Below are positions 1 through 14,302 of a stretch of 14,302 nucleotides of DNA, one piece after another. The number at the start of each line of letters is the position of its first letter. Position 1 is the stretch's first letter. The notes under the pieces are model-generated. The model ran no database searches and had not been told where the DNA came from. It was given only the letters and a program-made list of their open reading frames with translations. The translations under genes and the position numbers were made by a program. Source of the stretch: a virus (lineage: Duplodnaviria > Heunggongvirae > Uroviricota > Caudoviricetes); IMG/VR virus record IMGVR_UViG_2778261167_000006, positions 1-14,302 of that record, one strand, 5' to 3'.

Positions 1-1047
1 TTAACAAATGTTTTTTATTTCAGTTACAGTCTGATTAAATCTCTCTTCTTCCAGTTCCACGCCAATCGCACGGCGTCCCAGTGAAAGTGCCGCTTTTATT
101 GTTGAGCCAGACCCCATAAAAAAATCAGCAACCAAATCACCAGGGCGACTGCTGGCATCAATTATCTGCCGCAACATATCCGCCGGTTTTTCACAGGGAT
201 GTTTGCCCGGATAAAACTGCACGGGTTTATGCGTCCAGACATCCGTATAAGGAACAGCTGCTGATACGGAAAAATAACGCCGCAGGGATTTGTACTCTTC
301 CAGCAGGCTGGCATATTGCCGGTTCAGTTCACTGTATACGCTGACCAGCCGGTGGTGTGGCTTTTCCAGTTCCCCACGCTGATGTTTTTCTGCTGCAACA
401 CGCGCAAACAACGCCTGTAATTTCAGATAATCGCCTTCGTTCGGCAACTGCCACTGGCTGATACCAAACCAGTGCGAAGCCATGTTTTTCTTTCCGGTGG
501 CTTCCGCTATCTGTTTTGACGTTATTCCCAGTGATTCACGCGCATCACGAAAGTAAGAAATCAGCGGGGCCATGACGTGCTGTTTAAGGTCGCGCCCCTT
601 TGCCGCATAGCCGTCATTTTTGGGCTGGTATGGCCCCTGATAATGTTCTGCAAACAGAATGCGTTCTGTTGCCGGGAAATACGCCCGCAGGCTTTCCTTG
701 TTGCATCCGTTCCAGCGTCCGGACGGCTTCGCCCAGATAATGTGGTTCAGCACATTAAAGCGTTCACGCATCATGATTTCGGTGTCAGATGCCAGGCGAT
801 GACCACAGAACAGGTAGAGACTTCCGGCAGGTTTCAGTACCCGCCAGAATTGCGCCAGACACTGATCCAGCCATTTCAGGTAATCATCGTCGCCCTTCCA
901 CTGGTTATCCCAGCCCTCGGGCTTCACTTTAAAGTATGGCGGGTCTGTGACTATCAGATCGACAGAGTTTTCCGGTAAGGTCTGGATAAATTCCAGGCAA
1001 TCAGCGTTGATTAACTCGCAACTGGATATTTTTACAGTATTAGCCAT
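1..1047 (-). CDS. DNA methyltransferase, N6-adenine or N4-cytosine type (motif order suggests beta class)
   Basis: 348-aa ORF with DLIVTDPPYF (catalytic DPPY motif) near the N-terminus and FFMGSGST (FxGxG SAM-binding motif) near the C-terminus. Stop TAA at 1-3, start ATG at 1045-1047. Confidence 0.85.
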   Translation of the reverse strand: MANTVKISSCELINADCLEFIQTLPENSVDLIVTDPPYFKVKPEGWDNQWKGDDDYLKWLDQCLAQFWRVLKPAGSLYLFCGHRLASDTEIMMRERFNVLNHIIWAKPSGRWNGCNKESLRAYFPATERILFAEHYQGPYQPKNDGYAAKGRDLKQHVMAPLISYFRDARESLGITSKQIAEATGKKNMASHWFGISQWQLPNEGDYLKLQALFARVAAEKHQRGELEKPHHRLVSVYSELNRQYASLLEEYKSLRRYFSVSAAVPYTDVWTHKPVQFYPGKHPCEKPADMLRQIIDASSRPGDLVADFFMGSGSTIKAALSLGRRAIGVELEEERFNQTVTEIKNIC

Positions 1048-1182
1048 AGATCAATAAGCACTTCTCTGATAGGCTCATTCCGCTTTTGCGCAAAGCAGAT
1101 GGGCCTGAGGTTTGCTTGTGACCCCAACGCATGAGCAGATGGCTGGCAGGTGCCGCTAACACCCACCAGCCGCCCATTACCA

Positions 1183-1211
1183 CAAATAAAAAAGCCTTCA
1201 CTGAGGAAGGC
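1183..1211 (-). terminator. Rho-independent terminator for minus-strand transcription, overlapping the 3' end of the small wHTH gene
   Basis: Inverted repeat GCCTTC (1194-1199) / GAAGGC (1206-1211) with a 6-nt loop, followed on the minus strand by a U-run (plus-strand aaataaaaaa at 1184-1193). Confidence 0.55.
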
Positions 1212-1395
1212 GTCTGTAACAACCGAACTGATAATCAGCCAGACCCGCCATAACAAGCTGGGTCAGTATTAACTGGCAACGTTCGCGTGAAAGGTAAGTA
1301 TTCTGCGCAATTTCCCCGACGGTCGCCGGTTCGGTGACGCTTAATTCATTAAACACCACTCTGGCGGTTTCGGTCATATCCTGCTGTTTTAGCAT
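1198..1395 (-). CDS. Small (65 aa) putative winged-helix DNA-binding protein, function unknown
   Basis: Internal Met of ORF 1198..1566 preceded by AAGGGA about 8 nt upstream. The longer N-terminal extension would read through a terminator hairpin, so the short start is preferred. Sequence TVGEIAQNTYLSRERCQLILTQL resembles an HTH recognition segment. Confidence 0.5.
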   Translation of the reverse strand: MLKQQDMTETARVVFNELSVTEPATVGEIAQNTYLSRERCQLILTQLVMAGLADYQFGCYRRLPQ

Positions 1396-1517
1396 GTCTT
1401 TTTCCCTTTTCTCGTTAACGTGACATACCAATAACTCTTGTCGAAAAAGCCAGCAAGCTGAAAGCCTCGTATCCGCAACCACCAGCGCGTTTAACGTCCT
1501 GTGCCGCTTTTTGGGCG

Positions 1518-1541
1518 CAAAAAACCCGCTCAGTGGCGGGT
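1518..1541 (-). terminator. Rho-independent terminator (minus strand; possibly bidirectional)
   Basis: Plus strand caaaaaACCCGCtcagtgGCGGGTtt: 6-bp GC-rich stem, 6-nt loop, flanked by an A6 run (a U-run on the minus strand) and a short T-run on the plus side. Confidence 0.5.
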
Positions 1542-1657
1542 TTAAGCTGTGTGGCGAAGTTACCACTCTTCACCAAGTATTCGGTAATAAAATAACTTGT
1601 GGTGTTCTCGTTTTTATGCCGATAAAATAAACGGTCCACTTTCAAATGGAGCGATTC

Positions 1658-2578
1658 ATGATTTTTCTCAGAACTGAAAACGGCATCGAGAAACTTGAAA
1701 ACTGGGAGGAAATTATATCCAGACCAAACTTTGTCACCGCTATAGACAAAGGAGTTCAACAACTTGAGGAGATAATTGGTTACTACAAATTTAAAGAAGA
1801 AATCCACTGTGGTCTAACTGGTTGCAACCAACCACATCAAATGGGTTATATTGTAAAAACATCTAGTGGCATTGAAACCAACATCGGAAATAAATGTGGT
1901 AAAAACGAATTTGGTGTGGAATTTGGTGAAAACGTTCTTAGTTTCAATAAATTTATGCAACTCGAAACCAATCGGGAAATTATTAGTGCCGCAAAAAGTA
2001 AATGTGAAGCGTGGCAAAAAAATATTGAAACGATACGAAATATTAAACCCACAATAGATTATCTATCTTCTACCATCGAAAATAGTAAAAATTCCAATTA
2101 CGCCGGAAGACTTGGTGCTACAGAAATTCGTTTTTTGACCAAGAGCCAGACAGGCCTTGTAACCCTTTCTGAAGTGGAAACTGATAAGAATACCAAAACA
2201 ATTCTGTTCGCAATGAATGAACACATGCGCGAGTCTGGAGAAGCAATAAGTGAATTCTACATAGGAAAAGTATCATTTAGTCATGTTCTTTTACCAGAAA
2301 ACAATCTTCGTGATTTTTTTGTTGCGCTCAAAGAAGATCTAAAAAAAATTCAGTGTATTGATCTACAAACAGCCCCAAGCCCAGAAATTTCTAATGTTGC
2401 CAAAATTGCCAGTTCAATCGAAGAACGAATCAAACGATTAAAAAAACTGAAACATGAAGCCAGTAAATTCCTAACTAAAAAAAATCTGCATCCCATCGCA
2501 AACAAAATAAAATACTCATCGACAGCGGATGAACTTGAATTCCATAATTTCGAACGCTTTTTAAACGGGCTGAAATGA
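1658..2578 (+). CDS. Hypothetical protein (306 aa), AT-rich lone gene on the opposite strand to its neighbours; candidate accessory (moron) gene
   Basis: Long ORF with GGAG 6 nt upstream of ATG 1658 (the ORF track starts at ATG 1646). GC about 35% by hand count of sampled lines, against about 55-60% in the helicase region. Contains HCGLTGC...CGKNEF cysteines but no motif I can assign. Confidence 0.7.
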   Translation: MIFLRTENGIEKLENWEEIISRPNFVTAIDKGVQQLEEIIGYYKFKEEIHCGLTGCNQPHQMGYIVKTSSGIETNIGNKCGKNEFGVEFGENVLSFNKFMQLETNREIISAAKSKCEAWQKNIETIRNIKPTIDYLSSTIENSKNSNYAGRLGATEIRFLTKSQTGLVTLSEVETDKNTKTILFAMNEHMRESGEAISEFYIGKVSFSHVLLPENNLRDFFVALKEDLKKIQCIDLQTAPSPEISNVAKIASSIEERIKRLKKLKHEASKFLTKKNLHPIANKIKYSSTADELEFHNFERFLNGLK

Positions 2579-2581
2579 TAA

Positions 2582-2599
2582 AAGCCCCGAAAGGGGCTT
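2582..2599. terminator. Stem-loop between convergent genes (possible bidirectional terminator)
   Basis: AAGCCCCgaaaGGGGCTT, a 7-bp stem with a 4-nt loop, lying between the stop of the plus-strand gene (2578) and the stop of the minus-strand 276-aa gene (2693). Flanking U-runs are weak on both strands. Confidence 0.35.
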
Positions 2600-2692
2600 C
2601 TATCAAAATCATTTACGCATTATTCCGCATGCTCAAAAGAATACATGACAGATTCGGACAAAATCAAGTGCAATGTCGCAAAAAGCCTAAGT

Positions 2693-3523
2693 TTAGTTCA
2701 CATCATCACCAAAACTTGTCACATTCTGAAAAGCAATATCGGCCTTATGCTCTTCCTGGTGACAAATGTCAACCAGAGAATCAAGAAACGGCTTCCAATT
2801 ACGTGTCCATGTCCTGACATGTAGCTCGGGTATCCGCTTCAGTACAACTTTATATACTGTGGTAGACGGTATCGTGGAAAATCCATTTCCGCTACAACGT
2901 TCGCAGATTTTAAACACTGGCACACCACGCTCGCTTGTGGCTTTGCGGTCCAGTACCTCTCCCTTTCCACCACAACGACACCTGGCACTTATCACTCCCT
3001 TCCCTTTACATACATCGCAAACGACTGGTACAACTTCTGTTACCTCTGTCCATTTCTCCCAGTCTGACGGTCGAACAGCACGGGAGCGACTGGCCCAATA
3101 TGGTGCTTTACCCCATGGGTATGAAACCTTACGAATGACCTGCTTACGGGGTGTTAGTCCGGTACCACTGCAACTATGGCATGTTACGCTGGTGGCCGCC
3201 GATCGGGAATACTCAGCAAAAGCAAACTGCGCCAGTACCAGCATACACCAGCCAAATTCACCACCAGCTGCTTTACGCACATTCTTCGGTGCAATTTCCA
3301 TCGCGTGACGCGCCAGCGCCTGGACTGCCATCTGCTCATCAGTCTTGCTGATACCTGCCTTCCCGAAGAAGGCCACCAGACCAAACCGCTCACGATTGCT
3401 GGTGGTACCAATAGCCGCCATAACATCGGTGCCTGTAAGACGTTCCGGAGAGGTTCCTTTCACATCGTCGCCGATATACATTCCCTGAGGACTGAAGTAT
3501 TTTAGCGATGCCTCAAGCTTCAT
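2693..3523 (-). CDS. Zinc-finger protein with four CxxCxGxG repeats (DnaJ cysteine-rich-domain type); last gene of the replication operon
   Basis: 276-aa ORF with CHSCSGTG, CDVCKGKG, CRCGGKG and CERCSGNG. GGGGAG lies 8 nt upstream of the ATG; the ATG overlaps the upstream gene's stop (TAATG). Confidence 0.75.
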   Translation of the reverse strand: MKLEASLKYFSPQGMYIGDDVKGTSPERLTGTDVMAAIGTTSNRERFGLVAFFGKAGISKTDEQMAVQALARHAMEIAPKNVRKAAGGEFGWCMLVLAQFAFAEYSRSAATSVTCHSCSGTGLTPRKQVIRKVSYPWGKAPYWASRSRAVRPSDWEKWTEVTEVVPVVCDVCKGKGVISARCRCGGKGEVLDRKATSERGVPVFKICERCSGNGFSTIPSTTVYKVVLKRIPELHVRTWTRNWKPFLDSLVDICHQEEHKADIAFQNVTSFGDDVN

Positions 3524-4380
3524 TATTCACACTCCCCAACCAGATTGAGAATGACCGCTGCACCGTCGTCTTCCATGCATTCACCCTTACCACTTGCCAG
3601 AAACCAGCGGCACACCTCCACGGCTTCAGCGCGTGTCACCGGTTTGATAGTTGCCAGCAATTTTTCAAGGTAGCGCTCCCGGTCATATACTGATTCGTGA
3701 TGCTCAGAGTAACCAAACTCATCGCCCTGTTCTTTAGTTGCAGTGTGGCGAACACTGTAGAGCCAGTCCCAGTAAACGAACTCGCGAACAACATCAGACA
3801 GCGTATAAGGCTCAGGCAGCACATCGCGATATCCATCAACAAATGCCCGACGCTGTTCATCAATTTCGTTCATGCGGCTGCCGCCAATGCTTCCGGCTTT
3901 TTTCTCTGCCGCAGTCCAGCCCCAGAGATGATCGTTGATAAATTTCTTGGAAGACCTGATGACCCGCTCTGCTTCCACATCTTCGAGCGCTGCTTCATAG
4001 CTACCAAACGTAGCCCTGACTGATGCCGCTTTTTTGATGTTCTCCCGGGCGTTCCTGATAACCTGCGCAGGGTTATCCATGCCGATGATGCCGAACGCAA
4101 CCTGGAAAGGTTCGTAACCATTCGCCAGCAGATAACGCGAATAGCGTTCCTGAGCCTCTTTTGGGGAAATTTTAATTTTCACCAGCGCAGCCTCAGCAGC
4201 ATCCAGATGTGCGGGTTCGTTCAGACGGATAACCTCCAGCACCCAAAGATAAGCATCAGTCTGCTTATGCCCGGTGATTCTCCGTTGCTCTGGCAGGGGC
4301 TTGATGTTTGTGAGGGCGGAGCTGTACGCTGCCGTCGGGATGGTGAATAGTGCTTTATGTTCGTTATTATCAGTACGCAT
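3523..4380 (-). CDS. Hypothetical phage protein (285 aa), coupled between primase and the zinc-finger protein
   Basis: Long ORF with TAATG start/stop overlaps at both ends (4378-4382 and 3521-3525), placing it in the same operon. No recognisable motif. Confidence 0.65.
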   Translation of the reverse strand: MRTDNNEHKALFTIPTAAYSSALTNIKPLPEQRRITGHKQTDAYLWVLEVIRLNEPAHLDAAEAALVKIKISPKEAQERYSRYLLANGYEPFQVAFGIIGMDNPAQVIRNARENIKKAASVRATFGSYEAALEDVEAERVIRSSKKFINDHLWGWTAAEKKAGSIGGSRMNEIDEQRRAFVDGYRDVLPEPYTLSDVVREFVYWDWLYSVRHTATKEQGDEFGYSEHHESVYDRERYLEKLLATIKPVTRAEAVEVCRWFLASGKGECMEDDGAAVILNLVGECE

Positions 4381-5348
4381 TACGCAACCGCCTTTTTCTT
4401 ATGGAAAACCAGCTCTCGAACCTGATCACCGTTCATGAGCATATTGTTGAAATCATCGTGATCCGGCCAGTACACGCTCACGCGCTGCAGGTCATTCTTT
4501 GCCATCAGATTGGCATGAGCACATTCGCAAGCCGCAGCCAGCCCGGTGGCGCTGTTCTCGTCACGGTCGGCAAAAATAATCAGGTGCAGAACACCAGCTG
4601 GTACGCGGAACTTTTTCATAAAGCCGCTGTTAATGGTTGCCCAGGTGTTCACGTTATAAATCTGGTGCGCTGACAGCGCTGTTTCGATGCCTTCGGCGAT
4701 ACCCAGAGTGCTGGCGACAGGAAACATGCGGATAGCTACAGAACGAGCGTGATCCAAATAGTTATCTTCCTGCAGGGATTTGAGGCGCTTTGCACTGCTA
4801 CCGATATCTGCTTTTTTATCACCATCAAGCAGAGTCTGGTGCAGATAGCACAGCTCCCCTTTATCGTCCGTAGCAAGTGAATAAAGAGACTGGAACACAC
4901 TCCCGTTGTGTCTCTGCCTGGCATTGAACCGGATCGCCTCAGCAGGAAGACTGAATATTCCACGAGAATTAAGATACGCTGCGCCGGATGTACCACGCAG
5001 TGCCTCCAGTTTTGAAAACTTGCTCAATACCCGTTTGCGTAAGCTGGTGGCGCTGCTGGTTACCGGGATTTTAACCCGTTGGTAATCATTACCGATCAGG
5101 CGGTCTATTTCGGTACAAATCTCGTTAAATGGCTTCGCCTGTGTCAGGGTGACAAGTTTCATACCATCGCCACTACCACATACACAGATCCACGTTCCTG
5201 CACCGTCGCGGTCATCAATTCGGAACTTGCCACGTGCACCGCATACCGGGCATTCACCCTTGAAGTGATTTTTTCCGGTTATCGGCGGCAGACCGAAGTG
5301 CTCTAATATTTCAGGCCAGCGGCCTTTCGCTGCATCTGCTGTTTTCAT
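4380..5348 (-). CDS. DNA primase, TOPRIM type with N-terminal zinc-binding motif
   Basis: 322-aa ORF. N-terminal CPVCG...CVCG zinc-ribbon-like motif; IAEGIETALS (conserved TOPRIM Glu) and IIFADRDENSATGLAAA (DxD motif). Start lies 2 nt after the helicase stop. Confidence 0.85.
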   Translation of the reverse strand: MKTADAAKGRWPEILEHFGLPPITGKNHFKGECPVCGARGKFRIDDRDGAGTWICVCGSGDGMKLVTLTQAKPFNEICTEIDRLIGNDYQRVKIPVTSSATSLRKRVLSKFSKLEALRGTSGAAYLNSRGIFSLPAEAIRFNARQRHNGSVFQSLYSLATDDKGELCYLHQTLLDGDKKADIGSSAKRLKSLQEDNYLDHARSVAIRMFPVASTLGIAEGIETALSAHQIYNVNTWATINSGFMKKFRVPAGVLHLIIFADRDENSATGLAAACECAHANLMAKNDLQRVSVYWPDHDDFNNMLMNGDQVRELVFHKKKAVA

Positions 5349-5349
5349 C

Positions 5350-7008
5350 TTACTGACTCAGACTGTTTATATTTTTCTGGAGTTGGTGCTTTGCCTGCAT
5401 GATGCGCCAGGCCTCACTGCCTGCCGGCATCTCACGTCGTTCATCACGTTCCTGAGATAAATCAATCGTTGTTTGTGCGTTTTCAGTGACCTTCTGAACC
5501 CGCTGACGGCCTTTGGCAAACCGAATCAGCTTGTGTTTGATGTAGTTACTTACCTCTGGGCTTATTTCCATCGGGAAACTGCTCAACCCATCAGGCCATT
5601 CACCGAATTTCTCCCTGAAAGTGTGAGCACACCATCCATCACTGACTGGACGCCCCAGCGAAGCACGCTGGCGCTGATAAAATTTGATCTGACTCCACCA
5701 GGACTGTTTCTCTGCCTTCGTCGACTGATGCTGATTTTTACCCAGCTTATTAAGTTTGCGGCTAGTGTCAGTATCAACGTCTTCACCTCGCAGCGGCTTG
5801 TGTCCACATTTCGGGCAAACATAGACGCCAGCTGGCTTCATGTAGTGGCATTGAGGGCATTCATGTGGCAGTTTTTCGGCCCGTTCCTCAACTGCGCGGC
5901 GCGCGCTTTCCTCCATACCGTCAGACTTGCCGGGAAGATCGTCGTACTCGATTGAATCCGGATAACCCAGACGGTGCACGGTGCCGCTATGATCGAAGAT
6001 GAGGCAGGACTCTTTACCCGGTGCGGTGCGCAGCCCACGCCCGAGTGCCTGCAACCAGCGAATTTCGCTTTTTGTTGGCCTGGCGTAGATGATGCAACGA
6101 ACGTCACTATCGAAGCCGGCCACCAGCACGCCCACACTAACGATGATTTTCGTTGCACCAGTTTCAAAGCGGTGAATGATGGTCTGGCGCTCATCTACCG
6201 GAGTGTCTGCGGTCATTACCTCAGCGTTAACACCTGCGAGGTTAAACTGGATTGTCAGGTAATTGGCGTGGGCTACGTTGACGCAGAAAGCGATGGTAGG
6301 TAGATCCCGACCATTCTCCAGCCAGTTCTGTACAATGTCGCCCACCAGCGTAGATCCGCACATGATTTCAGCTAGCTGCGTTTCGTTGTAATCCCGGCCG
6401 TACTCAAGCGAAGATGTGGTTTTAACACCTTTCAGATCCGGCTTAGTTGGCGCGTAAAATTCGTATTTACTCAGATCGCCACGCTGGATTAACTCGCCGA
6501 TTGTGGTCGGCTTAATCAGTCGGTCATAGTATTTGCCCAGGAACGGGGAAAACGGAGTACCCGACAGGCCAATCACCTTTACGCCTTTGCCGCGCAGACG
6601 TTCGATATCCTTCAGGATGCGTTTTTTACGCAGGTGCGCTTCGTCGATAATCAGCAGATCGATATTTTCAGGAAAAACACGACGAATAAGCGTGTCAGCG
6701 CTGGCAATCTGAATTTTCCGGTCCGGATCGTAGTTCGGGTGATCCGCCCAGATATAACCGATTTCATCTCCAGGTAAACCATACTGCACGAACCGATTAG
6801 CCGTCTGACCAATCAGGATGGTGTACGGAACACAGAACAGGACGCGCATACCACGACTGACAAACCCGGCAACGATGAAGGCAGCCAAACCCGTTTTACC
6901 GCTACCGGTTGGCGAATACACCATGAAGGTGTCGTTTGCCTTCCAATCACGGCGCAACATGTTTAGCGCTCGTTCCTGTGCAAAATTCGGCGTGATCGTC
7001 AGCTCCAT
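5350..7008 (-). CDS. Superfamily-2 DEAD/DEAH-box helicase with C-terminal zinc ribbon (replicative helicase)
   Basis: 552-aa ORF. Walker A SPTGSGKT, motif II IDEAH, motif III-like SGTP, C-terminal CPQCH...CPKCG. GGGAG 7 nt upstream of the start. Confidence 0.9.
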   Translation of the reverse strand: MELTITPNFAQERALNMLRRDWKANDTFMVYSPTGSGKTGLAAFIVAGFVSRGMRVLFCVPYTILIGQTANRFVQYGLPGDEIGYIWADHPNYDPDRKIQIASADTLIRRVFPENIDLLIIDEAHLRKKRILKDIERLRGKGVKVIGLSGTPFSPFLGKYYDRLIKPTTIGELIQRGDLSKYEFYAPTKPDLKGVKTTSSLEYGRDYNETQLAEIMCGSTLVGDIVQNWLENGRDLPTIAFCVNVAHANYLTIQFNLAGVNAEVMTADTPVDERQTIIHRFETGATKIIVSVGVLVAGFDSDVRCIIYARPTKSEIRWLQALGRGLRTAPGKESCLIFDHSGTVHRLGYPDSIEYDDLPGKSDGMEESARRAVEERAEKLPHECPQCHYMKPAGVYVCPKCGHKPLRGEDVDTDTSRKLNKLGKNQHQSTKAEKQSWWSQIKFYQRQRASLGRPVSDGWCAHTFREKFGEWPDGLSSFPMEISPEVSNYIKHKLIRFAKGRQRVQKVTENAQTTIDLSQERDERREMPAGSEAWRIMQAKHQLQKNINSLSQ

Positions 7009-7270
7009 TGTGCTGCTCCCGTGCTGATGAGATAATAATTTCGTGATGTGGTTTTCATGGATTCCCCCTCACATGGCTGGTGGCCTCCCCAAAGGCTGCC
7101 AGCCCCCTTTCTGATTCAGCTCCTCTGAAAAATCACTCTTCCAAGAAGAACCCTTTTCGTTTCTCAAGGCCTGGGCGCTTTGTACTACCTTGCTGATACG
7201 AGCGTTTTTTTAAATTGCGCCCTTAAGACAGTGATCTACTTAACCAATGGATCTCTCCTGTTGGAAAAGA

Positions 7271-7324
7271 CCCTATTCCTGCCCCTACACCCAATCCCCC
7301 CCTACCCCCCTTTCCCTCTTCCCC
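7271..7324. repeat. Polypyrimidine, C-run-rich tract (G-run-rich on the minus strand) in a noncoding region
   Basis: Plus strand ccctattcctgcccctacacccaatccccccctacccccctttccctcttcccc; the minus strand carries consecutive G-runs. No ORF covers it. Confidence 0.6.
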
Positions 7325-7350
7325 ATAAAAACGTACTACTTACCTAGTAC
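7325..7350 (-). terminator. Weak terminator-like hairpin downstream of the cII-position gene
   Basis: Plus strand ataaaaac + GTACTA cttacc TAGTAC; on the minus strand this is a 6-bp AT-rich stem followed by GUUUUUAU. Confidence 0.3.
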
Positions 7351-7421
7351 ATATGAGGAATTGGGTCAGTTGGTTGCCAACCTGAACAGGCACCTTTAAG
7401 CCTGCTTCTGTTCGGGTGCCT

Positions 7422-7730
7422 TTAAACCCGAAACAATGAGGAGCGCGATAGCGATCCAGCCAGGGGCGGCTGAGTTGTATACCCCTGTAAAGCCCTGCCC
7501 TGATTTCTCACAAACAAGCGGAGCCTTGTGTTTGCTTCGTGCCTTGCTCTGTTCTCCTTGCGGAATGAAACAGGCTCAGCGTCAAAAGTGATTTCGTATA
7601 CCTCCGCATATTTCAGGGCGACCTTCCGTCTCAGTGACGGAGGCAGCCCCTGTAACTGCTGCTGAATCCACTCTTCGTCTGCCTGGCAGTACCTAGATGG
7701 CATCTCTGTCTGAACGTAATTCTGGGACAT
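7422..7730 (-). CDS. Hypothetical protein (102 aa) at the position lambda gives to cII; no similarity to lambda CII recognised
   Basis: ORF immediately downstream of the Cro-like gene on the same strand, overlapping it by 38 nt. Confidence 0.5.
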   Translation of the reverse strand: MSQNYVQTEMPSRYCQADEEWIQQQLQGLPPSLRRKVALKYAEVYEITFDAEPVSFRKENRARHEANTRLRLFVRNQGRALQGYTTQPPLAGSLSRSSLFRV

Positions 7731-7980
7731 ACAAGCCCTTCACCTCCGCCGTGCGCGCTAAGCTTGGATGTGGAAAAAGCTCTGGTAGGTCTGGACGAAA
7801 TTCATACGCTTGGATCTTTCCGTCGACAGCTGCAACCAATAACGGCACAAATTCTGGTGAAATCTTGTTCTTGCAGTTCAACCAATCGCAGACTGTTGAC
7901 TGGGCCTTTCCGCATCGCTTGGCTAAGGCTTGCTGACTTCCAAGAATCTCAATAGCTTTCTCTATGGCTTTATGTTTCAT
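7693..7980 (-). CDS. Cro-like HTH DNA-binding protein
   Basis: HTH segment GSQQALAKRCGKAQSTVCDWL. Start chosen at the Met preceded by AGGAGA 7 nt upstream (plus-strand tctcct at 7988-7993). Divergent from the CI-like gene. Confidence 0.75.
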   Translation of the reverse strand: MKHKAIEKAIEILGSQQALAKRCGKAQSTVCDWLNCKNKISPEFVPLLVAAVDGKIQAYEFRPDLPELFPHPSLARTAEVKGLYVPELRSDRDAI

Positions 7981-8002
7981 AATCGCATCTCCTATTGAGC
8001 GC

Positions 8003-8031
8003 ATAATAGCAACAGAAAAAGCGATATTCAA
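8003..8031 (-). promoter_or_regulatory. Putative sigma-70 promoter for the Cro-like gene (PR analog)
   Basis: Minus strand TTGAAT, 17-bp spacer, TATTAT (plus-strand attcaa at 8026-8031 and ataata at 8003-8008), about 15 nt upstream of the RBS. Confidence 0.5.
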
Positions 8032-8047
8032 CGTTAAACCTAGATCA

Positions 8048-8067
8048 TTTATCGGAAAGCCGATAAA
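8048..8067. promoter_or_regulatory. Perfect palindrome, candidate repressor/Cro operator
   Basis: TTTATCGG aaag CCGATAAA: perfect 8-bp inverted repeat with a 4-bp spacer, about 35-50 bp upstream of the CI-like start codon. Confidence 0.45.
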
Positions 8068-8099
8068 CTAACCAGGATAGAAAGGGGAGGAAAATCGCA

Positions 8100-8792
8100 A
8101 TGACATTTTCAGAACGACTTGATTTAGCTATGCGCAACGCAAAATTTACGCAAGGTAGGCTGGCCAAAGAAGTGGGTATGGCTCAGTCCAGTGTTAATCA
8201 ACTACTTAATAAAGCCAACGGTTCCAGAAAAACAGTCGAAATAGCAAAAGTTTTGGGCGTTAACCCGGAATGGCTCGCATCGGGTGTTGGCCCAATGGAA
8301 ATCGTGACCTCTGCAGACTCACACCAAATACGTAACATTTCTGAAGATTGGGTTACTGATTCGTATGTCGTGGATGTTTTAGACATCAGATATAGTTGCG
8401 GACCTGGTAGTTATAACTCTGATTTTCCTGACATTGTCAGATCTATAGCGATAGAACCAGGATACGCATCAAGAGTTTTTGGCGGCAGACCAGCATCAGC
8501 AATCAAAGCAATAAACGCCCACGGCGACAGTATGAAAGGCACAATAGACCCTGAAGACTTGGTATTTGTAGATGTATCAGTTCGCACATTTAATGGTGAT
8601 GGTATATACGCCTTTACATACTCTGGAACATCGCACATCAAAAGACTTCAAAAAATCAAAGATACTCTAACGGTGATATCTGACAACCCAGCTTACAAGG
8701 ATTGGGCTATCGAACCGGAAGACTTCGAACAACTTCACATTGACGGAAAAGTAATTGTCAGTTGGCCCATGACACTACACCGTTTTGCATAA
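8100..8792 (+). CDS. CI-like repressor: N-terminal XRE-type HTH plus C-terminal S24 (LexA-like) autopeptidase domain
   Basis: 230-aa ORF. HTH segment QGRLAKEVGMAQSSVNQL; C-terminal GDSM (Ser nucleophile) and downstream HIKRL (Lys). AGGGGAGG RBS before the ATG. Confidence 0.9.
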   Translation: MTFSERLDLAMRNAKFTQGRLAKEVGMAQSSVNQLLNKANGSRKTVEIAKVLGVNPEWLASGVGPMEIVTSADSHQIRNISEDWVTDSYVVDVLDIRYSCGPGSYNSDFPDIVRSIAIEPGYASRVFGGRPASAIKAINAHGDSMKGTIDPEDLVFVDVSVRTFNGDGIYAFTYSGTSHIKRLQKIKDTLTVISDNPAYKDWAIEPEDFEQLHIDGKVIVSWPMTLHRFA

Positions 8793-8810
8793 GCAAAAAT
8801 CATTTAACCC

Positions 8811-8837
8811 GCCCACTCTTAAGTGGGCTTTTTTTTT
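8811..8837 (+). terminator. Rho-independent terminator after the repressor gene
   Basis: GCCCACT ctta AGTGGGC (7-bp stem) followed by T9. Confidence 0.8.
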
Positions 8838-8859
8838 GGAAAAAAAATCGATAAACCGA

Positions 8860-8888
8860 TTGACAGGTAAAATCGGCGAACCTATTAT
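8860..8888 (+). promoter_or_regulatory. Near-consensus sigma-70 promoter (PL-like or lysogenic-conversion promoter)
   Basis: TTGACA (8860-8865), 17-bp spacer, TATTAT (8883-8888). Inverted repeat ACCTAT (8880-8885) / ATAGGT (8895-8900) overlaps the -10 and the predicted start site. Confidence 0.6.
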
Positions 8889-8937
8889 CATGACATAGGT
8901 ATCGAACTCACCAAAGCAATTATAGAGGATGAGAAAA

Positions 8938-9348
8938 ATGTCATCGTATATGGGGTTACCAACAAATCAGCACGATGCTCTTGAGAATATTCAGCTCTTA
9001 GTAGGGGCTGGTGCACTACTGTATAGCAGCAATAACCCTGAGTTAATTGAACTTGCCAGCTCCATCCTGGCTGTAACTCAAAAATATAGCCTCACCGCGT
9101 CACGTTTATGCAAACAAAATTTAGCTATTAATTCCCAGAATCGGATTCGCACCCAACGCGAAGCCTGCGGCTTAACAACCGCCGAACTCGCCAGGCTGCT
9201 CGATCTCGATGAAGAAATCATCATCCAGTGGGAGAGCGGAGAGTATGAACCAACTATCAGTATGCTTATCCCGCTGGCAAATGTTCTTGGTTGCGACCCG
9301 ATGTGGCTGTTAACCAGTAAACCAACAGCTGGGGATACTTGCGCATGA
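8938..9348 (+). CDS. Two-domain protein (136 aa): unknown N-terminal domain plus C-terminal XRE-family HTH
   Basis: AGAGGA 8 nt upstream of ATG 8938 (the ORF track starts at ATG 8929, which has no spacer). C-terminal HTH segment LTTAELARLLDLDEEIIIQWESGEYEPTISMLIPLANVLGCDPMWLL. Confidence 0.7.
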   Translation: MSSYMGLPTNQHDALENIQLLVGAGALLYSSNNPELIELASSILAVTQKYSLTASRLCKQNLAINSQNRIRTQREACGLTTAELARLLDLDEEIIIQWESGEYEPTISMLIPLANVLGCDPMWLLTSKPTAGDTCA

Positions 9349-9710
9349 AAAAGTTCGAAAACATAACTGTTCTCCATGTTGATGAATTTGATTATACAAA
9401 CCAGGAATTTCTCCCGGAGGTTATAAAAGCAATAGAAGTTGCCGATATAGTGTTTAGAGGAAAGAGAATTGTCAAAAACAGGCTCGCATGCACTTCAGGA
9501 GCAATGACAGAAACAACCTCACAACAAGATGATTATGAAGGCATTTGTCTGGAGCCTGATTCATTTGCGGTAAATGTTTATCATTTATTGCATGCAACAC
9601 AGGTATTACATATGTCCAGTAATCACGAGACAAAAACACTTGGCAGCGAAATTCTGAATTTTGCATGTGAATATGCAAAAGCTGCTGCCGAAAAAGAATT
9701 AGCACAATAA
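9345..9710 (+). CDS. Hypothetical protein (121 aa), translationally coupled to the upstream HTH gene
   Basis: ATG 9345-9347 overlaps the upstream stop TGA 9346-9348 (ATGA). AT-rich, about 33% GC in a sampled line. No recognisable motif. Confidence 0.65.
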   Translation: MKKFENITVLHVDEFDYTNQEFLPEVIKAIEVADIVFRGKRIVKNRLACTSGAMTETTSQQDDYEGICLEPDSFAVNVYHLLHATQVLHMSSNHETKTLGSEILNFACEYAKAAAEKELAQ

Positions 9711-9908
9711 CAACAAACATGCCCTGAACGTTTATTACGGTTTTATCGCCGGGGATTGTTACAACCTTTATTCATAGAGGGAAATCAGTTATGACTTTCC
9801 TGAAAAATAAGGCATCGTATAAAACTGCCTGCCTCATTGCACAACATGGAGATTCTTATCTTCATATAGCCAACCTGTATTTGCGCAAAGCATATGGGAG
9901 ATAAGTCA

Positions 9909-10097
9909 ATGGAAGAAAAACAACAAAACATAACACATAAAAAAGTAAGAGTGTTGCTAACCATTGAAAATGGTGAAGTAATTTACTCAAAACATCTGTT
10001 GGATAATGAATTCGTTGGCTGCATGGATACATTTCTGTGGATGGCAAAAAGAGCGGGTTACACGATTATTCCACCAGCAAAGGAGCAAACATTATGA
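9909..10097 (+). CDS. Hypothetical small protein (62 aa), first gene of a coupled pair
   Basis: GGGAG 8 nt upstream of ATG 9909; stop TGA 10095-10097 overlaps the next start ATG 10094-10096. AT-rich, about 27% GC in a sampled line. Confidence 0.5.
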   Translation: MEEKQQNITHKKVRVLLTIENGEVIYSKHLLDNEFVGCMDTFLWMAKRAGYTIIPPAKEQTL

Positions 10098-10675
10098 ATC
10101 ATTCAGAGTTCCGACCAGAAGTTACGCCACATGGCATAAAAATTGGCAATACAACCATTGATTATGTTGAGGCCGTACAGCGGCTTAATGATGGTGAATA
10201 CGATTATCCAAACTCACACGGTTTAAGAATCATGCAATGTATTGCTGAAGCCGATGATGCAGGGTTGCTGGGACGATTCTCAGTCGATATGAAGGTTGCT
10301 CAGTGGCGATGGCTGTATGTGACTACGTTTATAAATGAAGAGAAAGACAAGAACGGTACCGTTGATATCCCTAACGATAACGGAACTACAGATCACGCAG
10401 TTATTTACAAGGGTAAACATGGTTGCCTGAGTATCTACCCCGGACCACTTCGTATTGCCCTGCAAAACCACGTCGAATGGGGATTTATTGAAAAATATGG
10501 CGAAGCTGAAGGTATGGGGCGAGTTCTGTTTCTCTATCAAAAAATGCTCATCGCAGATCCTGATAATGGTTTCATTATTTCTGCTATGGGGCGCGAAGAG
10601 CTTGAACTCCTTCTGGATGAAATGATGAACGATCTGAATACTCATGGTATGCCAGAAGCGCCAGTGACACATTAA
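10094..10675 (+). CDS. Hypothetical protein (193 aa), second gene of a coupled pair
   Basis: AGGAG 8 nt upstream of ATG 10094; ATGA overlap with the upstream small ORF. The track ORF starting at 10037 lacks an RBS. Confidence 0.65.
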   Translation: MNHSEFRPEVTPHGIKIGNTTIDYVEAVQRLNDGEYDYPNSHGLRIMQCIAEADDAGLLGRFSVDMKVAQWRWLYVTTFINEEKDKNGTVDIPNDNGTTDHAVIYKGKHGCLSIYPGPLRIALQNHVEWGFIEKYGEAEGMGRVLFLYQKMLIADPDNGFIISAMGREELELLLDEMMNDLNTHGMPEAPVTH

Positions 10676-10720
10676 ATATTAAGAAGAATATAATTCTTCC
10701 ATCGTTTACTAACCGTTTAT

Positions 10721-10828
10721 ATGAAAAACAACCGTGAATTAAACAGAGTAAAACTGATTTTAATCCTTGCCACAGTACTGACACTAACTGAAATCATTAT
10801 TCTCTTTATTGCGCTGTCAGTCGGTTAA
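10721..10828 (+). CDS. Possible small hydrophobic peptide (35 aa, single predicted transmembrane segment)
   Basis: ATG...TAA ORF translating to MKNNRELNRVKLILILATVLTLTEIIILFIALSVG. No clear Shine-Dalgarno; below the size cut-off of the ORF track. Confidence 0.25.
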   Translation: MKNNRELNRVKLILILATVLTLTEIIILFIALSVG

Positions 10829-10851
10829 AAATATCGGGATACCACAGACCA

Positions 10852-11040
10852 ATGAGACTGTATTTCACAATAGTAATTTTACTGGCAATTATCGCATGCA
10901 TTTACGGATTACTCGTTCCGTTCCTTATATCCATGAAGGATACGATAGCCGTTACTTCTGGCTTTGCACTGGCGTTTCTGACCCCGCCCTGCATTTATGC
11001 CATTTACAAGGGTCTTTCTTTCACTAAGGATAAAAGATGA
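10852..11040 (+). CDS. Small membrane protein (62 aa, two predicted hydrophobic helices)
   Basis: Hydrophobic stretches IVILLAIIACIYGLLVPFLI and GFALAFLTPPCIYAIY. Stop TGA 11038-11040 overlaps the start of the SPFH gene (ATGA). Weak RBS. Confidence 0.5.
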   Translation: MRLYFTIVILLAIIACIYGLLVPFLISMKDTIAVTSGFALAFLTPPCIYAIYKGLSFTKDKR

Positions 11041-11864
11041 AAAAAATTATTTTTGCTTTAGCCATTGTTCTGCCGACTATTGGCCTTGTCGGTTGCGATC
11101 GCGTTGAACCAGGTAATGTTGGCATCAAGGTAAATAAACTGGGCGACGACAAAGGCGTCGGTGAGGTGGTCGGTGTTGGTCGCTACTGGACTGGCTGGAA
11201 TACTGAAGTTTACATCTTCCCCACCTTCAAGCAAATGAAGACCTACGATGAACCGTTCAGTTTCCAGATGAGTGACGGTACAACCATCGGCTATCACATT
11301 GGCGTGGCCTACAAAGTTGATCCATCCAAAGTTACCACGGTGTTTCAGACCTACCGCAAAGGCGTGGATGACATTACAGACACCGACCTGCGCCAGAAGA
11401 TCGCCGACGCACTCAACCGACTGGCCAGCAAAATGACCACCGACAAATTTATCGACGGCGGCAAGTCTGAGCTACTGGATGAAGCTCTTAAAGACATTCA
11501 GGCAGAGATGACACCCATCGGTATTCAGGTAATGAGCCTCTCATATGTGGGTAAGCCGGAGTACCCGCCTACTGTTATCGACAGCATTAATGCCAAAGTC
11601 ACGGCGAACCAGAAAACACTGCAGCGCGAGCAGGAAGTTAAACAGCGCGAAGCGGAAGCCAACATGTTGCGCGCGGAAGCTGCCGGACAGGCTGATGCTA
11701 TTCGCACAAAAGCCCAGGCTGAAGCCGACGCCATTCGTTTACGCGGTGAAGCTCTGCGCCAGAACCCCGGTGTTATGGAGCTGGAAGCCATCAATAAATG
11801 GAACGGCACACTGCCGCAATACATGACCAGCGGTGCTAATACACCATTTATCCAGGTTAAATAA
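11037..11864 (+). CDS. SPFH/band-7 (stomatin/prohibitin/HflKC-like) domain lipoprotein
   Basis: N-terminal lipoprotein signal MKKIIFALAIVLPTIGLVGC (lipobox LVGC). Central region typical of SPFH proteins; C-terminal Ala/Gln/Glu/Arg-rich coiled-coil-like segment. AAGGA 6 nt upstream of the ATG. Confidence 0.75.
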   Translation: MKKIIFALAIVLPTIGLVGCDRVEPGNVGIKVNKLGDDKGVGEVVGVGRYWTGWNTEVYIFPTFKQMKTYDEPFSFQMSDGTTIGYHIGVAYKVDPSKVTTVFQTYRKGVDDITDTDLRQKIADALNRLASKMTTDKFIDGGKSELLDEALKDIQAEMTPIGIQVMSLSYVGKPEYPPTVIDSINAKVTANQKTLQREQEVKQREAEANMLRAEAAGQADAIRTKAQAEADAIRLRGEALRQNPGVMELEAINKWNGTLPQYMTSGANTPFIQVK

Positions 11865-11871
11865 CTTATAT

Positions 11872-11890
11872 GCCCGGCAGGCCGCCGGGC
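11872..11890 (+). other. GC-rich stem-loop immediately after the SPFH gene (no U-tract)
   Basis: GCCCGGC aggcc GCCGGGC, a 7-bp stem, followed by taaggg rather than a T-run. Confidence 0.4.
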
Positions 11891-11904
11891 TAAGGGAAAT
11901 GCAG

Positions 11905-12264
11905 ATGAACACCCAGAATACTCAACCGCAAATAATGAACTATGACCCAAATCTGACGTCATGCGGACGCATGGCAAAACAAACCGTTCGATTAACTTTC
12001 GGACTATGGGAATACCGCGAAACATTCGAAGTCACTGTCGGCGGCAATCTGACCGGACTGGATGTTATCAGTTGCGCTATTGAAAGCCTGTACGCAACGC
12101 TGCCTTATGAAGAAGTCGAGGATGAGCGCGATATCATAGCCACCATTAATATCGGCGGACTGGAATGCAAGGATGAAAACCTGTCCGGAGAGCTCTGGCT
12201 TGCCGGGATGCTTATCTCAGCAGAAATCATCAGCATTGAACCCGCTACAAACATACGACTCTGA
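11905..12264 (+). CDS. Hypothetical protein (119 aa)
   Basis: AAGGGA 7 nt upstream of ATG 11905; the track ORF's earlier Mets lack RBS spacing. No recognisable motif. Confidence 0.55.
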   Translation: MNTQNTQPQIMNYDPNLTSCGRMAKQTVRLTFGLWEYRETFEVTVGGNLTGLDVISCAIESLYATLPYEEVEDERDIIATINIGGLECKDENLSGELWLAGMLISAEIISIEPATNIRL

Positions 12265-12295
12265 AGTTCTCACTATTCAGAGAGCAGGAGAAAAA

Positions 12296-12538
12296 ATGTT
12301 CGCTTTGATTAATCAGGGACAACTGTATACCGACAGTGCCGGTTACCCGGTAAGAATTATTCGCTGCATAAATAACACCGTGTTGTACAGAAGAATGGAT
12401 GGGCGAACACAGTCGGTAAAAATAAACGATTTTAATGAAACGTTTGAACGGCTCGATCATCAGGAATACCTACAAATTCTGGCAGAAACAGAGCAGGAAA
12501 CTCATCTGAAGAAATTACGAGCCATGCAAAGGAAGTAA
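12296..12538 (+). CDS. Hypothetical small protein (80 aa)
   Basis: AGGAG 5 nt upstream of ATG 12296, an internal Met of track ORF 12173..12538. Confidence 0.55.
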   Translation: MFALINQGQLYTDSAGYPVRIIRCINNTVLYRRMDGRTQSVKINDFNETFERLDHQEYLQILAETEQETHLKKLRAMQRK

Positions 12539-12541
12539 AAA

Positions 12542-12688
12542 ATGAATAAAGCGTTTGAGCTATGGGTACGCCAGCGTTACGGCAATCGCTATGACCTGAC
12601 GCGAGATGTTGACGGTTTCTACTGCCGTGAAATTGTAAAACGAATGTTTGAAGTGTGGTGCCACTGCCGTGGGCTGAGTGTTGTGTGA
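12542..12688 (+). CDS. Possible small protein (48 aa)
   Basis: ATG 12542 follows AGGAAG about 8 nt upstream and runs to TGA 12686-12688; translation MNKAFELWVRQRYGNRYDLTRDVDGFYCREIVKRMFEVWCHCRGLSVV. Below the ORF-track size cut-off. Confidence 0.35.
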   Translation: MNKAFELWVRQRYGNRYDLTRDVDGFYCREIVKRMFEVWCHCRGLSVV

Positions 12689-12696
12689 GGTAATGC

Positions 12697-12933
12697 ATGG
12701 GCAATGTGATTCAACTGGCTCCCAATGAATGGGTTTGTGAAAGCGTTCTTATCGCAATTACCGGGCTCAAACCAGGCACAATTCTCCGGGCCCGGAAAGA
12801 ATGCTGGATGGTAGGAAGAGAGTATATTCACGTATCGCCTGACGGTAATCCAAAACCTTCCAGCGAGTGTATGTATAACAGAAAAGCAATCGATGCCTGG
12901 GTCGCTTCAATGAAAAACAAACAACCTGGGTGA
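12697..12933 (+). CDS. xis: Excisionase-like small DNA-binding protein (recombination directionality factor)
   Basis: 78-aa ORF immediately upstream of the integrase on the same strand. WVCESVLIAITGLKPGTILRARKECWMVGREYIHV matches, from memory, the prophage excisionase-like family seen upstream of e14/Rac-type integrases. Confidence 0.7.
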   Translation: MGNVIQLAPNEWVCESVLIAITGLKPGTILRARKECWMVGREYIHVSPDGNPKPSSECMYNRKAIDAWVASMKNKQPG

Positions 12934-12988
12934 TTTAATACCATGAAATATGTAAGCTCGTATCGCTCTTGGGCGTCTGGAGGTATCG

Positions 12989-14302
12989 ATGGATAAAGTC
13001 AAATATCCAACAGGCGTCGAAAACCACGGTGGCACATTACGCATCTGGTTTAATTTTAAAGGTAAACGTGTCAGGGAAAATCTTGGTGTCCCTGACACTG
13101 CCAAGAACAGGAAGATCGCCGGAGAGCTGCGGACATCTGTATGTTTTGCCATTCGTACAGGAAACTTTGATTACGCTGCGCAGTTCCCTGACTCTCCTAA
13201 CCTCAAGGCTTTTGGAGTAAATAAAAAAGAAATTACGGTGAAAGAGCTTGAAGAAAAGTGGCTGGATCTGAAACGCATGGAAATCTCTGCAAATGCATTC
13301 AATCGCTATGAGTCCGTTGCAAGAACAATGATTCCGAAAATTGGAGGTAGCAGACTGGTGTCAACGGTGACCAAAGAGGAATTGCTGTATATCAGGAAAG
13401 ATTTGCTGACCGGATATCATAATTCAACGAAAGACAAAGCACCAGCAAGAGGACGGAGTGTCGTTACTGTAAATTATTATATGACGACAATCGCTGGAAT
13501 GTTTCAGTTTGCTGCAGATCACGGTTACTTAGAAGCAAATCCCTTCGAGGGAATTAAGCCTCTTAAAAGAGCCAGGGCAGAGCCAGATCCGCTAACTCGT
13601 GACGAATTTATTCGCCTGATAGATGCTTGCCGGCATCAGCAGACAAAAAACCTGTGGTCATTGGCTGTGTACACAGGAATGCGTCATGGTGAACTGGTCT
13701 CCCTGGCCTGGGAAGATATCGATCTGAAAGCAGGAACAATTACTATCAGGCGCAATTATACGAAACTCGGTGAGTTCACTCTACCTAAAACTGAAGCAAG
13801 TACAAACAGGGTTGTGCATCTTATCCAGCCCGCTATCAGTGTCCTGAAAAATCAGGCTGAAATGACAAGACTGGGTAAGCAGCACCACATCAAGGTTCAA
13901 CTACGTGAATATGGACGTTCAGTGAATCATGAATGTACTTTCGTATTTAACCCCCAGGTGGTTAGAAAAAGCAAACAGGTAGGTTTTATCTACAAGGTAG
14001 ATTCCATTGGCGACTCATGGGAAACAGCCATTAAGCGTGCAGGCATCAGGCATCGAAAGGCATACCAGTCACGACACACTTATGCGTGCTGGTCATTATC
14101 TGCCGGAGCAAATCCAAGCTTCATTGCCAGCCAGATGGGCCATGCAAGTGCCCAGATGGTGTTCAATGTATACGGAGCCTGGATGACTGACAGCAATGCA
14201 GAACAGATCGCAATGCTGAATCAGAAGCTGGCAGATTATGTCCCAATGATGTCCCATGGTCACCAAAGTGACACAAGAGACTTATTAAAATCAGTAGGTT
14301 AG
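12989..14302 (+). CDS. int: Tyrosine recombinase / phage integrase
   Basis: 437-aa ORF with an N-terminal arm-binding-type region (YPTGVE...GTLRIWFNFKGKRVRE) and a C-terminal catalytic region with conserved Arg (MRHGELV), His/Arg (SRHTYA) and a Tyr near the C-terminus (VYGAWM). GGAGG 5 nt upstream of the ATG. Confidence 0.9.
   Translation: MDKVKYPTGVENHGGTLRIWFNFKGKRVRENLGVPDTAKNRKIAGELRTSVCFAIRTGNFDYAAQFPDSPNLKAFGVNKKEITVKELEEKWLDLKRMEISANAFNRYESVARTMIPKIGGSRLVSTVTKEELLYIRKDLLTGYHNSTKDKAPARGRSVVTVNYYMTTIAGMFQFAADHGYLEANPFEGIKPLKRARAEPDPLTRDEFIRLIDACRHQQTKNLWSLAVYTGMRHGELVSLAWEDIDLKAGTITIRRNYTKLGEFTLPKTEASTNRVVHLIQPAISVLKNQAEMTRLGKQHHIKVQLREYGRSVNHECTFVFNPQVVRKSKQVGFIYKVDSIGDSWETAIKRAGIRHRKAYQSRHTYACWSLSAGANPSFIASQMGHASAQMVFNVYGAWMTDSNAEQIAMLNQKLADYVPMMSHGHQSDTRDLLKSVG

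Follow-up and report, generated by a model that had tools for sequence, protein, structure and literature searches.

What does a lambdoid prophage carry between its repressor and its integrase when none of the familiar early-left genes of lambda can be recognised there? We addressed this question for positions 8860-12988 of a 14,302-nt stretch of DNA (hereafter the window; positions 1-14,302 of IMG/VR virus record IMGVR_UViG_2778261167_000006), a lambdoid prophage segment oriented opposite to the lambda map. An earlier note, made from the sequence alone, had described the region as lacking N, recombination, kil and cIII genes, as built from three two-gene cassettes that are each joined by an ATGA start/stop overlap, and as a cargo-rich accessory region rather than a conserved early operon. 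We consider it probable (roughly 0.7) that a lambdoid prophage of phiP27 type, with yecE as its integration site, has its leftward early (pL) operon in this region, and that the content of the region is accessory.

A putative repressor-controlled operon from pL into xis and int

Within 7000-14302, the top sigma-70 match is a pL-like promoter just past the cI gene (Table 1), accompanied by two operator-like sites, ATCGATAAACCGAT and ATCGGCGAACCTAT. A perfect palindrome, TTTATCGG-AAAG-CCGATAAA, lies in the OR region at 8048-8067, and the core of this palindrome (ATCGG-N4-CCGAT, at most one mismatch) was searched for across the whole window. We found three matches (8051, 8847 and 8872) compared with 0.30 expected, and none of 200 shuffles reached three; one match lies at OR, one abuts the -35 element of pL and one overlaps its -10 element. 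As in lambda, pL adjoins cI and xis-int lies at the distal end, and the motif positions suggest that cI would bind at pL. Ten co-oriented genes lead from pL into xis and int, and no plus-strand intrinsic terminator was found between pL and int in a scan that detects canonical intrinsic terminators only. Because a single strong promoter with OR-matching operators is followed by no internal plus-strand terminator, the region still reads as one early operon, and on regulatory grounds we infer that it is controlled by the repressor as a unit. The cI transcript is predicted to end at an intrinsic terminator of its own (-12.4 kcal/mol, z = -2.2). The nine T residues of this terminator are followed immediately by GG and eight A residues (8829-8847), and the resulting T-run/A-run palindrome could terminate transcription in both directions.

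The two intergenic hairpins described in the earlier note exist, the first of them one base off the position given for it. This first hairpin is weak (-4.9 kcal/mol, z = -2.0), and the second folds at -17.1 kcal/mol (z = -2.3). Both were rejected as terminators, since neither has a U-tract and the terminator scan calls neither of them. In the loop and 3' arm of the first hairpin lies a perfect TATAAT (10689-10694), with GTGACA upstream at 19-nt spacing; instead of an RNA structure, this palindrome may be an element of a promoter or operator. It also falls in a recurrent recombination breakpoint, homology ending at 10677-10695 in 10 relatives.

The region is shared with phage phiP27 and varies by module

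Between 9146 and 13000, which covers 92% of the region, the window is 95.6% nucleotide-identical to L10-L01 of the Stx2e phage phiP27 (NC_003356 / AJ298298), and collinear homologues of L10, L08, L07, L06, L05, L04, L03, L02 and L01 are present in the same order. Protein identity to phiP27 is 89-100% from L08 to L01 and 77% over the helix-turn-helix (HTH) half of L10; the products of C, F, I and xis are 100% identical, and that of int is 99% identical. The full region is also 96.5% identical to the yecE prophage of E. coli UMNF18. In that prophage, the nearest E. coli relative over the full length, the integrase gene (13190-14502) is annotated as frameshifted, and this copy may be unable to excise. 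A near-identical phiP27 region has been public since 2002, and among the 5426 complete E. coli genomes of our survey, 62 hold at least 80% of the region.

The single modules are distributed differently in these genomes: cro-cI-pL was found in 71, A-B in 311, C-D in 83, the E-F region in 571 (with 241 places on P1-like plasmids), G-H-I in 631 and xis-int in 328. In 328 E. coli genomes int adjoins the DUF72/yecE gene, and the window itself ends at the int stop codon. The check that had been proposed, namely whether cassettes vary among relatives while cI and int/xis stay fixed, was positive in E. coli KC-Dl-1. The identity of this relative to the window is 97-99% over Q-helicase-cro-cI-pL and most of A and 95% over H-I-xis-int; other genes take the place of B, E, F and G, and C and D are present only as divergent homologues (73-74% and 44% amino acid identity) with a ParE-like gene between them. 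Among other yecE prophages, compared as carriers of the same integrase as the window, Ea22-like and DUF4752 genes stand in place of the region in ST131, YfdQ and YfdR in O104:H4, and RdgC and a 3'-5' exonuclease in Nissle 1917. At least four cI types and at least three int types flank the block in 53 viral contigs picked by C, and homology with relatives ends at gene ends.

The contrast drawn by the earlier note between an accessory region and a conserved early operon can therefore be kept in one half: the differing module distributions are those of an accessory mosaic, while by its regulation the region still reads as one pL early operon. Nor is the region invariant across relatives, the outcome that would have counted against that view. 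Its content varies, as in KC-Dl-1, yet phiP27 and dozens of E. coli genomes keep the whole block at about 95-96%, and because of this conservation the block is not an unusual structure. It is a phiP27-type arrangement, already present in a published phage and common in E. coli, and represents ordinary lambdoid mosaicism.

Searches for lambda early-left functions

Every search agreed with the earlier statement that N, recombination, kil and cIII genes are not recognisable in the region. When all ten proteins were scanned with Pfam, PHROGs, NCBIfam and PADLOC, no N, cIII, Kil, Gam, Bet or Exo was detected; A is an HTH_3 protein, F a Band 7/SPFH protein, and the others belong to domains of unknown function (DUFs) or to phage families without an assigned function. 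When lambda N, cIII, kil, gam, bet, exo, ea10, ral, sieB and rexAB were compared with the whole window by tblastn, int was the only match (E = 4e-5).

The first pL gene encodes an XRE-family HTH protein and not an arginine-rich N antiterminator, and no open reading frame (ORF) of at least 25 amino acids (aa) has at least six Arg within 18 residues; PHROGs and the lambda tblastn were likewise empty for N. The pL leader measures only about 40 nt up to the first gene. As for nutL, boxA-like sites occur at chance level (11 found, 11.4 expected) and Rfam was empty: at E values up to 1 it gave only two chance-level matches, one of which is the cI terminator. RNA-based (put-like) antitermination and other RNA elements were rejected for want of a real Rfam match. 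Neither the Red genes (exo, bet, gam) nor another pair of annealing protein and exonuclease was found in the region; D is the only protein big enough for a recombinase, and its confident model has neither an annealing-protein nor an exonuclease fold. PHROGs and lambda tblastn gave no sequence match to kil or cIII, but these are tiny, fast-evolving proteins, and non-homologous analogues could escape a comparison by sequence.

A published comparison of Stx phages found neither N nor cIII nor an orthologue of cII in P27 and could not identify many lambdoid regulatory elements there (PMC3430580). The absence of lambda genes that headed the earlier note is already on record for an almost identical sequence.

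The three gene pairs are not equivalent

All three ATGA overlaps lie exactly where they had been reported (9345-9348, A stop/B start; 10094-10097, C/D; 11037-11040, E/F). Three small ORFs (G, H and I) indeed come before xis-int, and the GC content of the region is patchy, from 0.36 in B-C up to 0.54 in F. Three 4-nt overlaps among ten junctions are not unusual, as the early-left region of lambda has two of them and six other overlaps. The idea of three equivalent cassettes did not survive the comparison with relatives: the A-B overlap is rare, the C-D coupling belongs to one lineage, and only E-F is portable.

The 5' half of gene A, encoding the N-terminal half of the protein, varies between prophages of different cI type, and the variable sites of A fall 16/12/44 on codon positions 1/2/3. 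The N-terminal domain of A (8929-9100) and the C-terminal domain of B (9513-9710) both match PHROG 4587, and BLASTP aligned A with B weakly (E = 0.003); there are hints that B may interact with or mimic A. A PDB sequence search for B returned nothing with E < 1. The codon-position pattern of B is 54/38/65, with indels in 7 of 36 distinct copies, and the gene appears to be under relaxed constraint and decaying. Only 17 of the 311 genomes with an A-B match have the overlap (a full-length match), and in most relatives a further 250 or 573 bases lie between the two genes. The same 9 bases, CATGAAAAA, stand at either end of the 573-bp segment of phiP27, which holds an unannotated 80-aa ORF (6200-6442), whose ATG overlaps the L10 stop codon (ATGA), together with the reverse-strand gene L09. 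Because of these shared boundaries, the A-B overlap in the window looks like the product of a deletion between two similar start sites.

For gene C, the start is probably at 9909 (62 aa), which has a good Shine-Dalgarno sequence and is used in most database copies. The structural model of C (pLDDT 84) had no PDB match, and the model of D is an alpha/beta protein with no known fold relative and weak helical matches only; a PDB sequence search for D gave nothing with E < 1, and a profile search of a genome collection with D gave three loci only. The C/D ATGA is kept in 55 of 55 loci of this lineage. Elsewhere, C and D are set apart by a short spacer (ST131), C is present without D (E110019), or a ParE-like gene, a gene of 130-140 aa, or both lie between them (KC-Dl-1 and Citrobacter relatives), giving the arrays C-ParE-D, C-140aa-D and C-ParE-140aa-D. 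An obligate, adjacent C-D unit is not found across relatives, and the coupling is lineage-specific.

A ParE_like gene after C homologues was the lead for considering C-D as a type II toxin-antitoxin pair, C being 74% identical to the KC-Dl-1 protein that precedes such a gene. This candidate is weakened by the varied arrays between C and D and by the negative PADLOC scan; C and D matched nothing in Pfam, NCBIfam or PADLOC, and no toxin or antitoxin fold was recognised in their models. C homologues followed by an overlapping 72-73-aa ParE_like (PF24732) gene were seen in three relatives (L006, 10582-10984; L065, 3001-3403; L067, 3180-3564). C has a different C-terminal tail depending on the gene that comes next.

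Gene F encodes an SPFH lipoprotein whose Band 7 match (residues 22-208; 109.2 bits, cut-off 23.6) spans the whole 176-position model and is followed by an Ala/Glu/Gln-rich helical segment. Its lipobox, LVGC, is followed by Asp at +2. By the Lol-avoidance rule, Asp at +2 retains a lipoprotein in the inner membrane, and F is predicted to be an inner-membrane lipoprotein that faces the periplasm. The best PDB sequence match is a remote one to HflK (E = 4e-4). F scores 25.9 bits against the HflC model (cut-off 134.4) and 23.1 bits against HflK (cut-off 159.4), and 16-26 bits against HflK/HflC models overall (cut-offs 134-660); with scores so far under the cut-offs, F was rejected as an HflK/HflC equivalent. 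Variable sites in F fall 18/8/151 on the three codon positions, a pattern that points to strong purifying selection.

The E/F ATGA is kept in 46 of 46 loci, and gain or loss affects the pair as a whole, the breakpoints lying at 10677-10695 and 11935; it is missing from about 12 of 53 loci that are otherwise collinear. GC content is 0.47-0.54 in F compared with 0.385 upstream. Indel polymorphism, precise boundaries and deviant composition are features of a moron, and E-F has all three. In E110019 and LH50-c, E-F follows other neighbours and is accompanied by different integrases. The P2-like phage P88 has a homologous small membrane ORF (gp11) that overlaps its SPFH lipoprotein gene, and RCS47, a P1-like phage, has a 78-aa membrane ORF (2231-2467) that is not annotated, resembles E and P88 gp11 and overlaps the start of the SPFH gene. 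The second hairpin is lost together with E-F in relatives, and in two others (L007 and L008) its stem is kept while the loop differs; downstream of the SPFH stop codon there is a GC-rich hairpin in every lambdoid context, and also in P88, where the hairpin is a different one. As a promoter of its own, E-F has only the promoter-like site with the 19-nt spacer, which stays with the D flank. Of the three pairs, E-F is the only portable, conserved two-gene unit, and it comes with a 3' hairpin. A literature search turned up no functional study of phage SPFH lipoproteins. E-F might be a self-contained module, spread among temperate coliphages of lambdoid, P2-like and P1-like type because it serves the phage in a membrane function not yet described, perhaps caging or modulating FtsH and so taking the part of cIII in the choice between lysis and lysogeny, or perhaps blocking DNA entry or lysis by competing phages; we think this decidedly unlikely.

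Weighing the explanations

In the proposed operon, cI on the pL operators would keep the genes silent in a lysogen, and upon induction or infection the pL transcript would read through to xis-int without an N-type antiterminator, which would not be needed because there would be nothing to antiterminate. The ATGA overlaps would provide ordinary translational coupling. The content would be non-essential accessory material built by recombination at gene boundaries, with short shared start sequences such as CATGAAAAA serving as junctions; we propose that such junctions let genes be gained or lost as whole ORFs with their coupling preserved. E-F with its 3' hairpin would be the one truly portable module, most likely forming a periplasm-facing SPFH assembly on the inner membrane. 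Several points weigh against this picture. Rho-dependent sites or the two U-less hairpins could stop transcription, repression of pL by cI is predicted from sequence motifs, and the GTGACA-19-TATAAT candidate promoter just upstream of E-F could allow part of the operon to be expressed in the lysogen. Furthermore, eight of the ten genes have no known function, and since small lambda functions such as Kil and cIII are conserved in neither fold nor sequence, B, C, G, H and I could include non-homologous analogues that sequence comparison would miss.

The modules could instead be morons, that is, lysogen-expressed cargo of benefit to the host, with E-F acting in membrane superinfection exclusion or abortive infection and C (with or without D) as a toxin-antitoxin-like part. 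The polymorphic presence of E-F, its GC content unlike the flanks, its 3' hairpin and its occurrence in three phage lineages all fit such cargo, as do the purifying selection on F, the TATAAT-bearing site and the resemblance of C to a protein encoded before a ParE_like toxin gene. However, PADLOC is empty for B through I, the one or two genes between C and D in relatives mean that these two are not an obligate pair, and all the genes lie downstream of the operator-bearing pL. The candidate promoter has a poor spacer and remains with the D flank, not with E-F, in relatives, and in P88 a 4-nt overlap with the early gene before it leaves the E-like gene no room for a promoter of its own. We regard the moron explanation as possible, though unlikely. 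Alternatively, analogues of N, Red, Kil or cIII could be present in diverged or non-homologous form, F for example modulating FtsH in the role of cIII and a small ORF acting as a Kil-like division inhibitor. The nearest solved relative of F is HflK, an FtsH modulator, F, like the HflKC domains, is predicted to lie on the periplasmic side of the inner membrane, and several ORFs of 48-121 aa have no assigned function. FtsH modulation like that by HflKC has also been suggested for a prophage SPFH protein of another element (PMC4936722). Against this, the HflK/HflC scores are low, F is a generic SPFH protein, there is no arginine-rich protein and no nut site, and D has no recombinase fold. E-F is also carried by P2-like and P1-like phages, which to our knowledge are not known to use a CII/FtsH switch. 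Nor has a cII orthologue been identified in phiP27 (PMC3430580). Hidden analogues seem very unlikely to us.

Lastly, the region could be a decayed remnant of a cryptic prophage from which recombination and regulatory genes were deleted. Relaxed constraint and frequent indels in B, the frameshifted UMNF18 int, and A-B and C-D junctions that look like deletion products would be expected of a remnant, but the same gene set is found in phiP27, which was isolated as a phage, all ORFs of the window are intact, and D, E, F, H, I, xis and int have coding-type substitution patterns; decay is scarcely credible here. The pL-operon explanation is the one we prefer. By itself it matters little: the early-left region described here is that of a phage already sequenced, and it is an example of textbook lambdoid mosaicism. 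What it adds is a view at base-pair level, in which homology breaks at gene ends and, in one case, 9 shared bases at a start codon delimit the alternative arrangements; swapping of whole genes at start/stop overlaps would explain how translational coupling survives recombination. Strongly conserved, carried by about one in ten complete E. coli genomes and also found on P1-like plasmids, the SPFH lipoprotein pair is the one lead with some promise and a reasonable target for a phage-exclusion or lysogeny assay.

Other features of the window

The coordinates of all features are collected in Table 1. Between D and E lies a short hydrophobic ORF that has no family match in Pfam or PHROGs; its variable sites fall 8/4/8 on the codon positions, an ambiguous pattern, and there are no indels among 18 distinct copies. 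Whether it is a gene is uncertain. For G, a PDB sequence search returned nothing with E < 1 and the literature search nothing on DUF5406. H adjoins xis, or lies one gene off, in all yecE prophages examined. A 310-aa ORF at 1646-2578 on the plus strand, opposite to the neighbouring methylase and Q genes, has 36% GC and matches PHROG 7003 only, with empty Pfam and PADLOC scans; it looks like a late-region moron.

Table 1. Features of the window, in map order, with their best family matches.
Feature	Position	Strand	Description	Family match
DNA methylase		minus		
Q-type antiterminator	2693-3523	minus		
285-aa protein, Toprim primase, DEAD-box helicase, cII-position gene, YdaS-type cro		minus		
cI	8100-8792	plus	S24/LexA-type repressor	
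Terminator of cI transcript	8811-8828	plus	intrinsic; 7-bp GC stem, then T9 (terminator scan)	
Operator-like site ATCGATAAACCGAT	8847-8860	strandless	abuts pL -35	
pL-like sigma-70 promoter	8860-8888	plus	TTGACA-17-TATTAT, 11/12 match (promoter scan)	
Operator-like site ATCGGCGAACCTAT	8872-8885	strandless	overlaps pL -10	
Gene A	8929-9348	plus	139-aa XRE-family HTH regulator, phiP27 L10 homologue	Pfam HTH_3 7.6e-12; PHROG 4836 3e-50
Gene B	9345-9710	plus	121 aa, phiP27 L08 homologue	PHROG 5451 1.5e-80; also PHROG 4587
Gene C	9894-10097	plus	62-67 aa, phiP27 L07 homologue	PHROG 340 2.6e-24
Gene D	10094-10675	plus	193 aa, phiP27 L06 homologue	
First hairpin	10683-10699	plus	GAAGAAT-ATA-ATTCTTC, AT-rich 7-bp stem directly after D stop	
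Unannotated ORF between D and E	10721-10828	plus	35 aa, hydrophobic; from translation	
Gene E	10852-11040	plus	62-aa membrane protein, two hydrophobic segments	PHROG 1130 'membrane protein' 6e-23; no Pfam domain
Gene F	11037-11864	plus	275-aa SPFH/Band 7 lipoprotein, phiP27 L05 homologue	Pfam Band_7 (PF01145) 3e-31; PHROG 200 2.7e-114
Second hairpin	11872-11890	plus	GCCCGGC-AGGCC-GCCGGGC, GC-rich 7-bp stem	
Gene G	11899-12264	plus	121 aa, DUF5406, phiP27 L04	Pfam 1.2e-22; PHROG 3409
Gene H	12296-12538	plus	80 aa, DUF4222, phiP27 L03	Pfam 3.3e-16; PHROG 285
Gene I	12542-12688	plus	48 aa	PHROG 3871 5.7e-36
xis	12697-12933	plus	excisionase, phiP27 L02	PHROG 539 7e-40
int	12989-14302	plus	tyrosine integrase, yecE-targeting type, phiP27 L01	PHROG 1 3e-86

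Comparison with known systems

The closest known system is phiP27, in which the genes from the 3' half of A to int follow one another in the same order and the integrase is of the same yecE type. It differs from the window in its own repressor/cro module, its replication genes and the 5' half of A, and in the 573-bp segment between A and B. The pL operon of lambda occupies the same place in the same orientation between cI and xis-int, with its promoter just past the cI transcript and overlapped by repressor-type operators, and it likewise consists of small, often overlapping, non-essential genes that are mosaic between relatives. In contrast to lambda, no N, nutL, Red genes, kil, cIII, ral, sieB or rexAB were recognised here, and no internal intrinsic terminators were found, so that antitermination would not be needed.

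A moron, as reportedly defined by Juhala et al. in 2000, is an inserted gene with its own promoter and terminator. E-F and its hairpin resemble a moron in being an indel relative to collinear relatives, in their deviant GC content, in ending in a stem-loop and in occurring on unrelated phage backbones; they differ in that there is no convincing promoter of their own, the hairpin has no U-tract, and the P88 unit is translationally coupled to the upstream early gene. Among bacterial SPFH proteins, F differs in being attached by a lipid anchor (lipobox) and not by a transmembrane helix, and E, unlike a YbbJ-type partner, has no NfeD domain. With its full Band 7 domain and a small membrane protein encoded next to it, F nonetheless resembles the HflK-HflC and QmcA-YbbJ (SPFH plus NfeD partner) operons.

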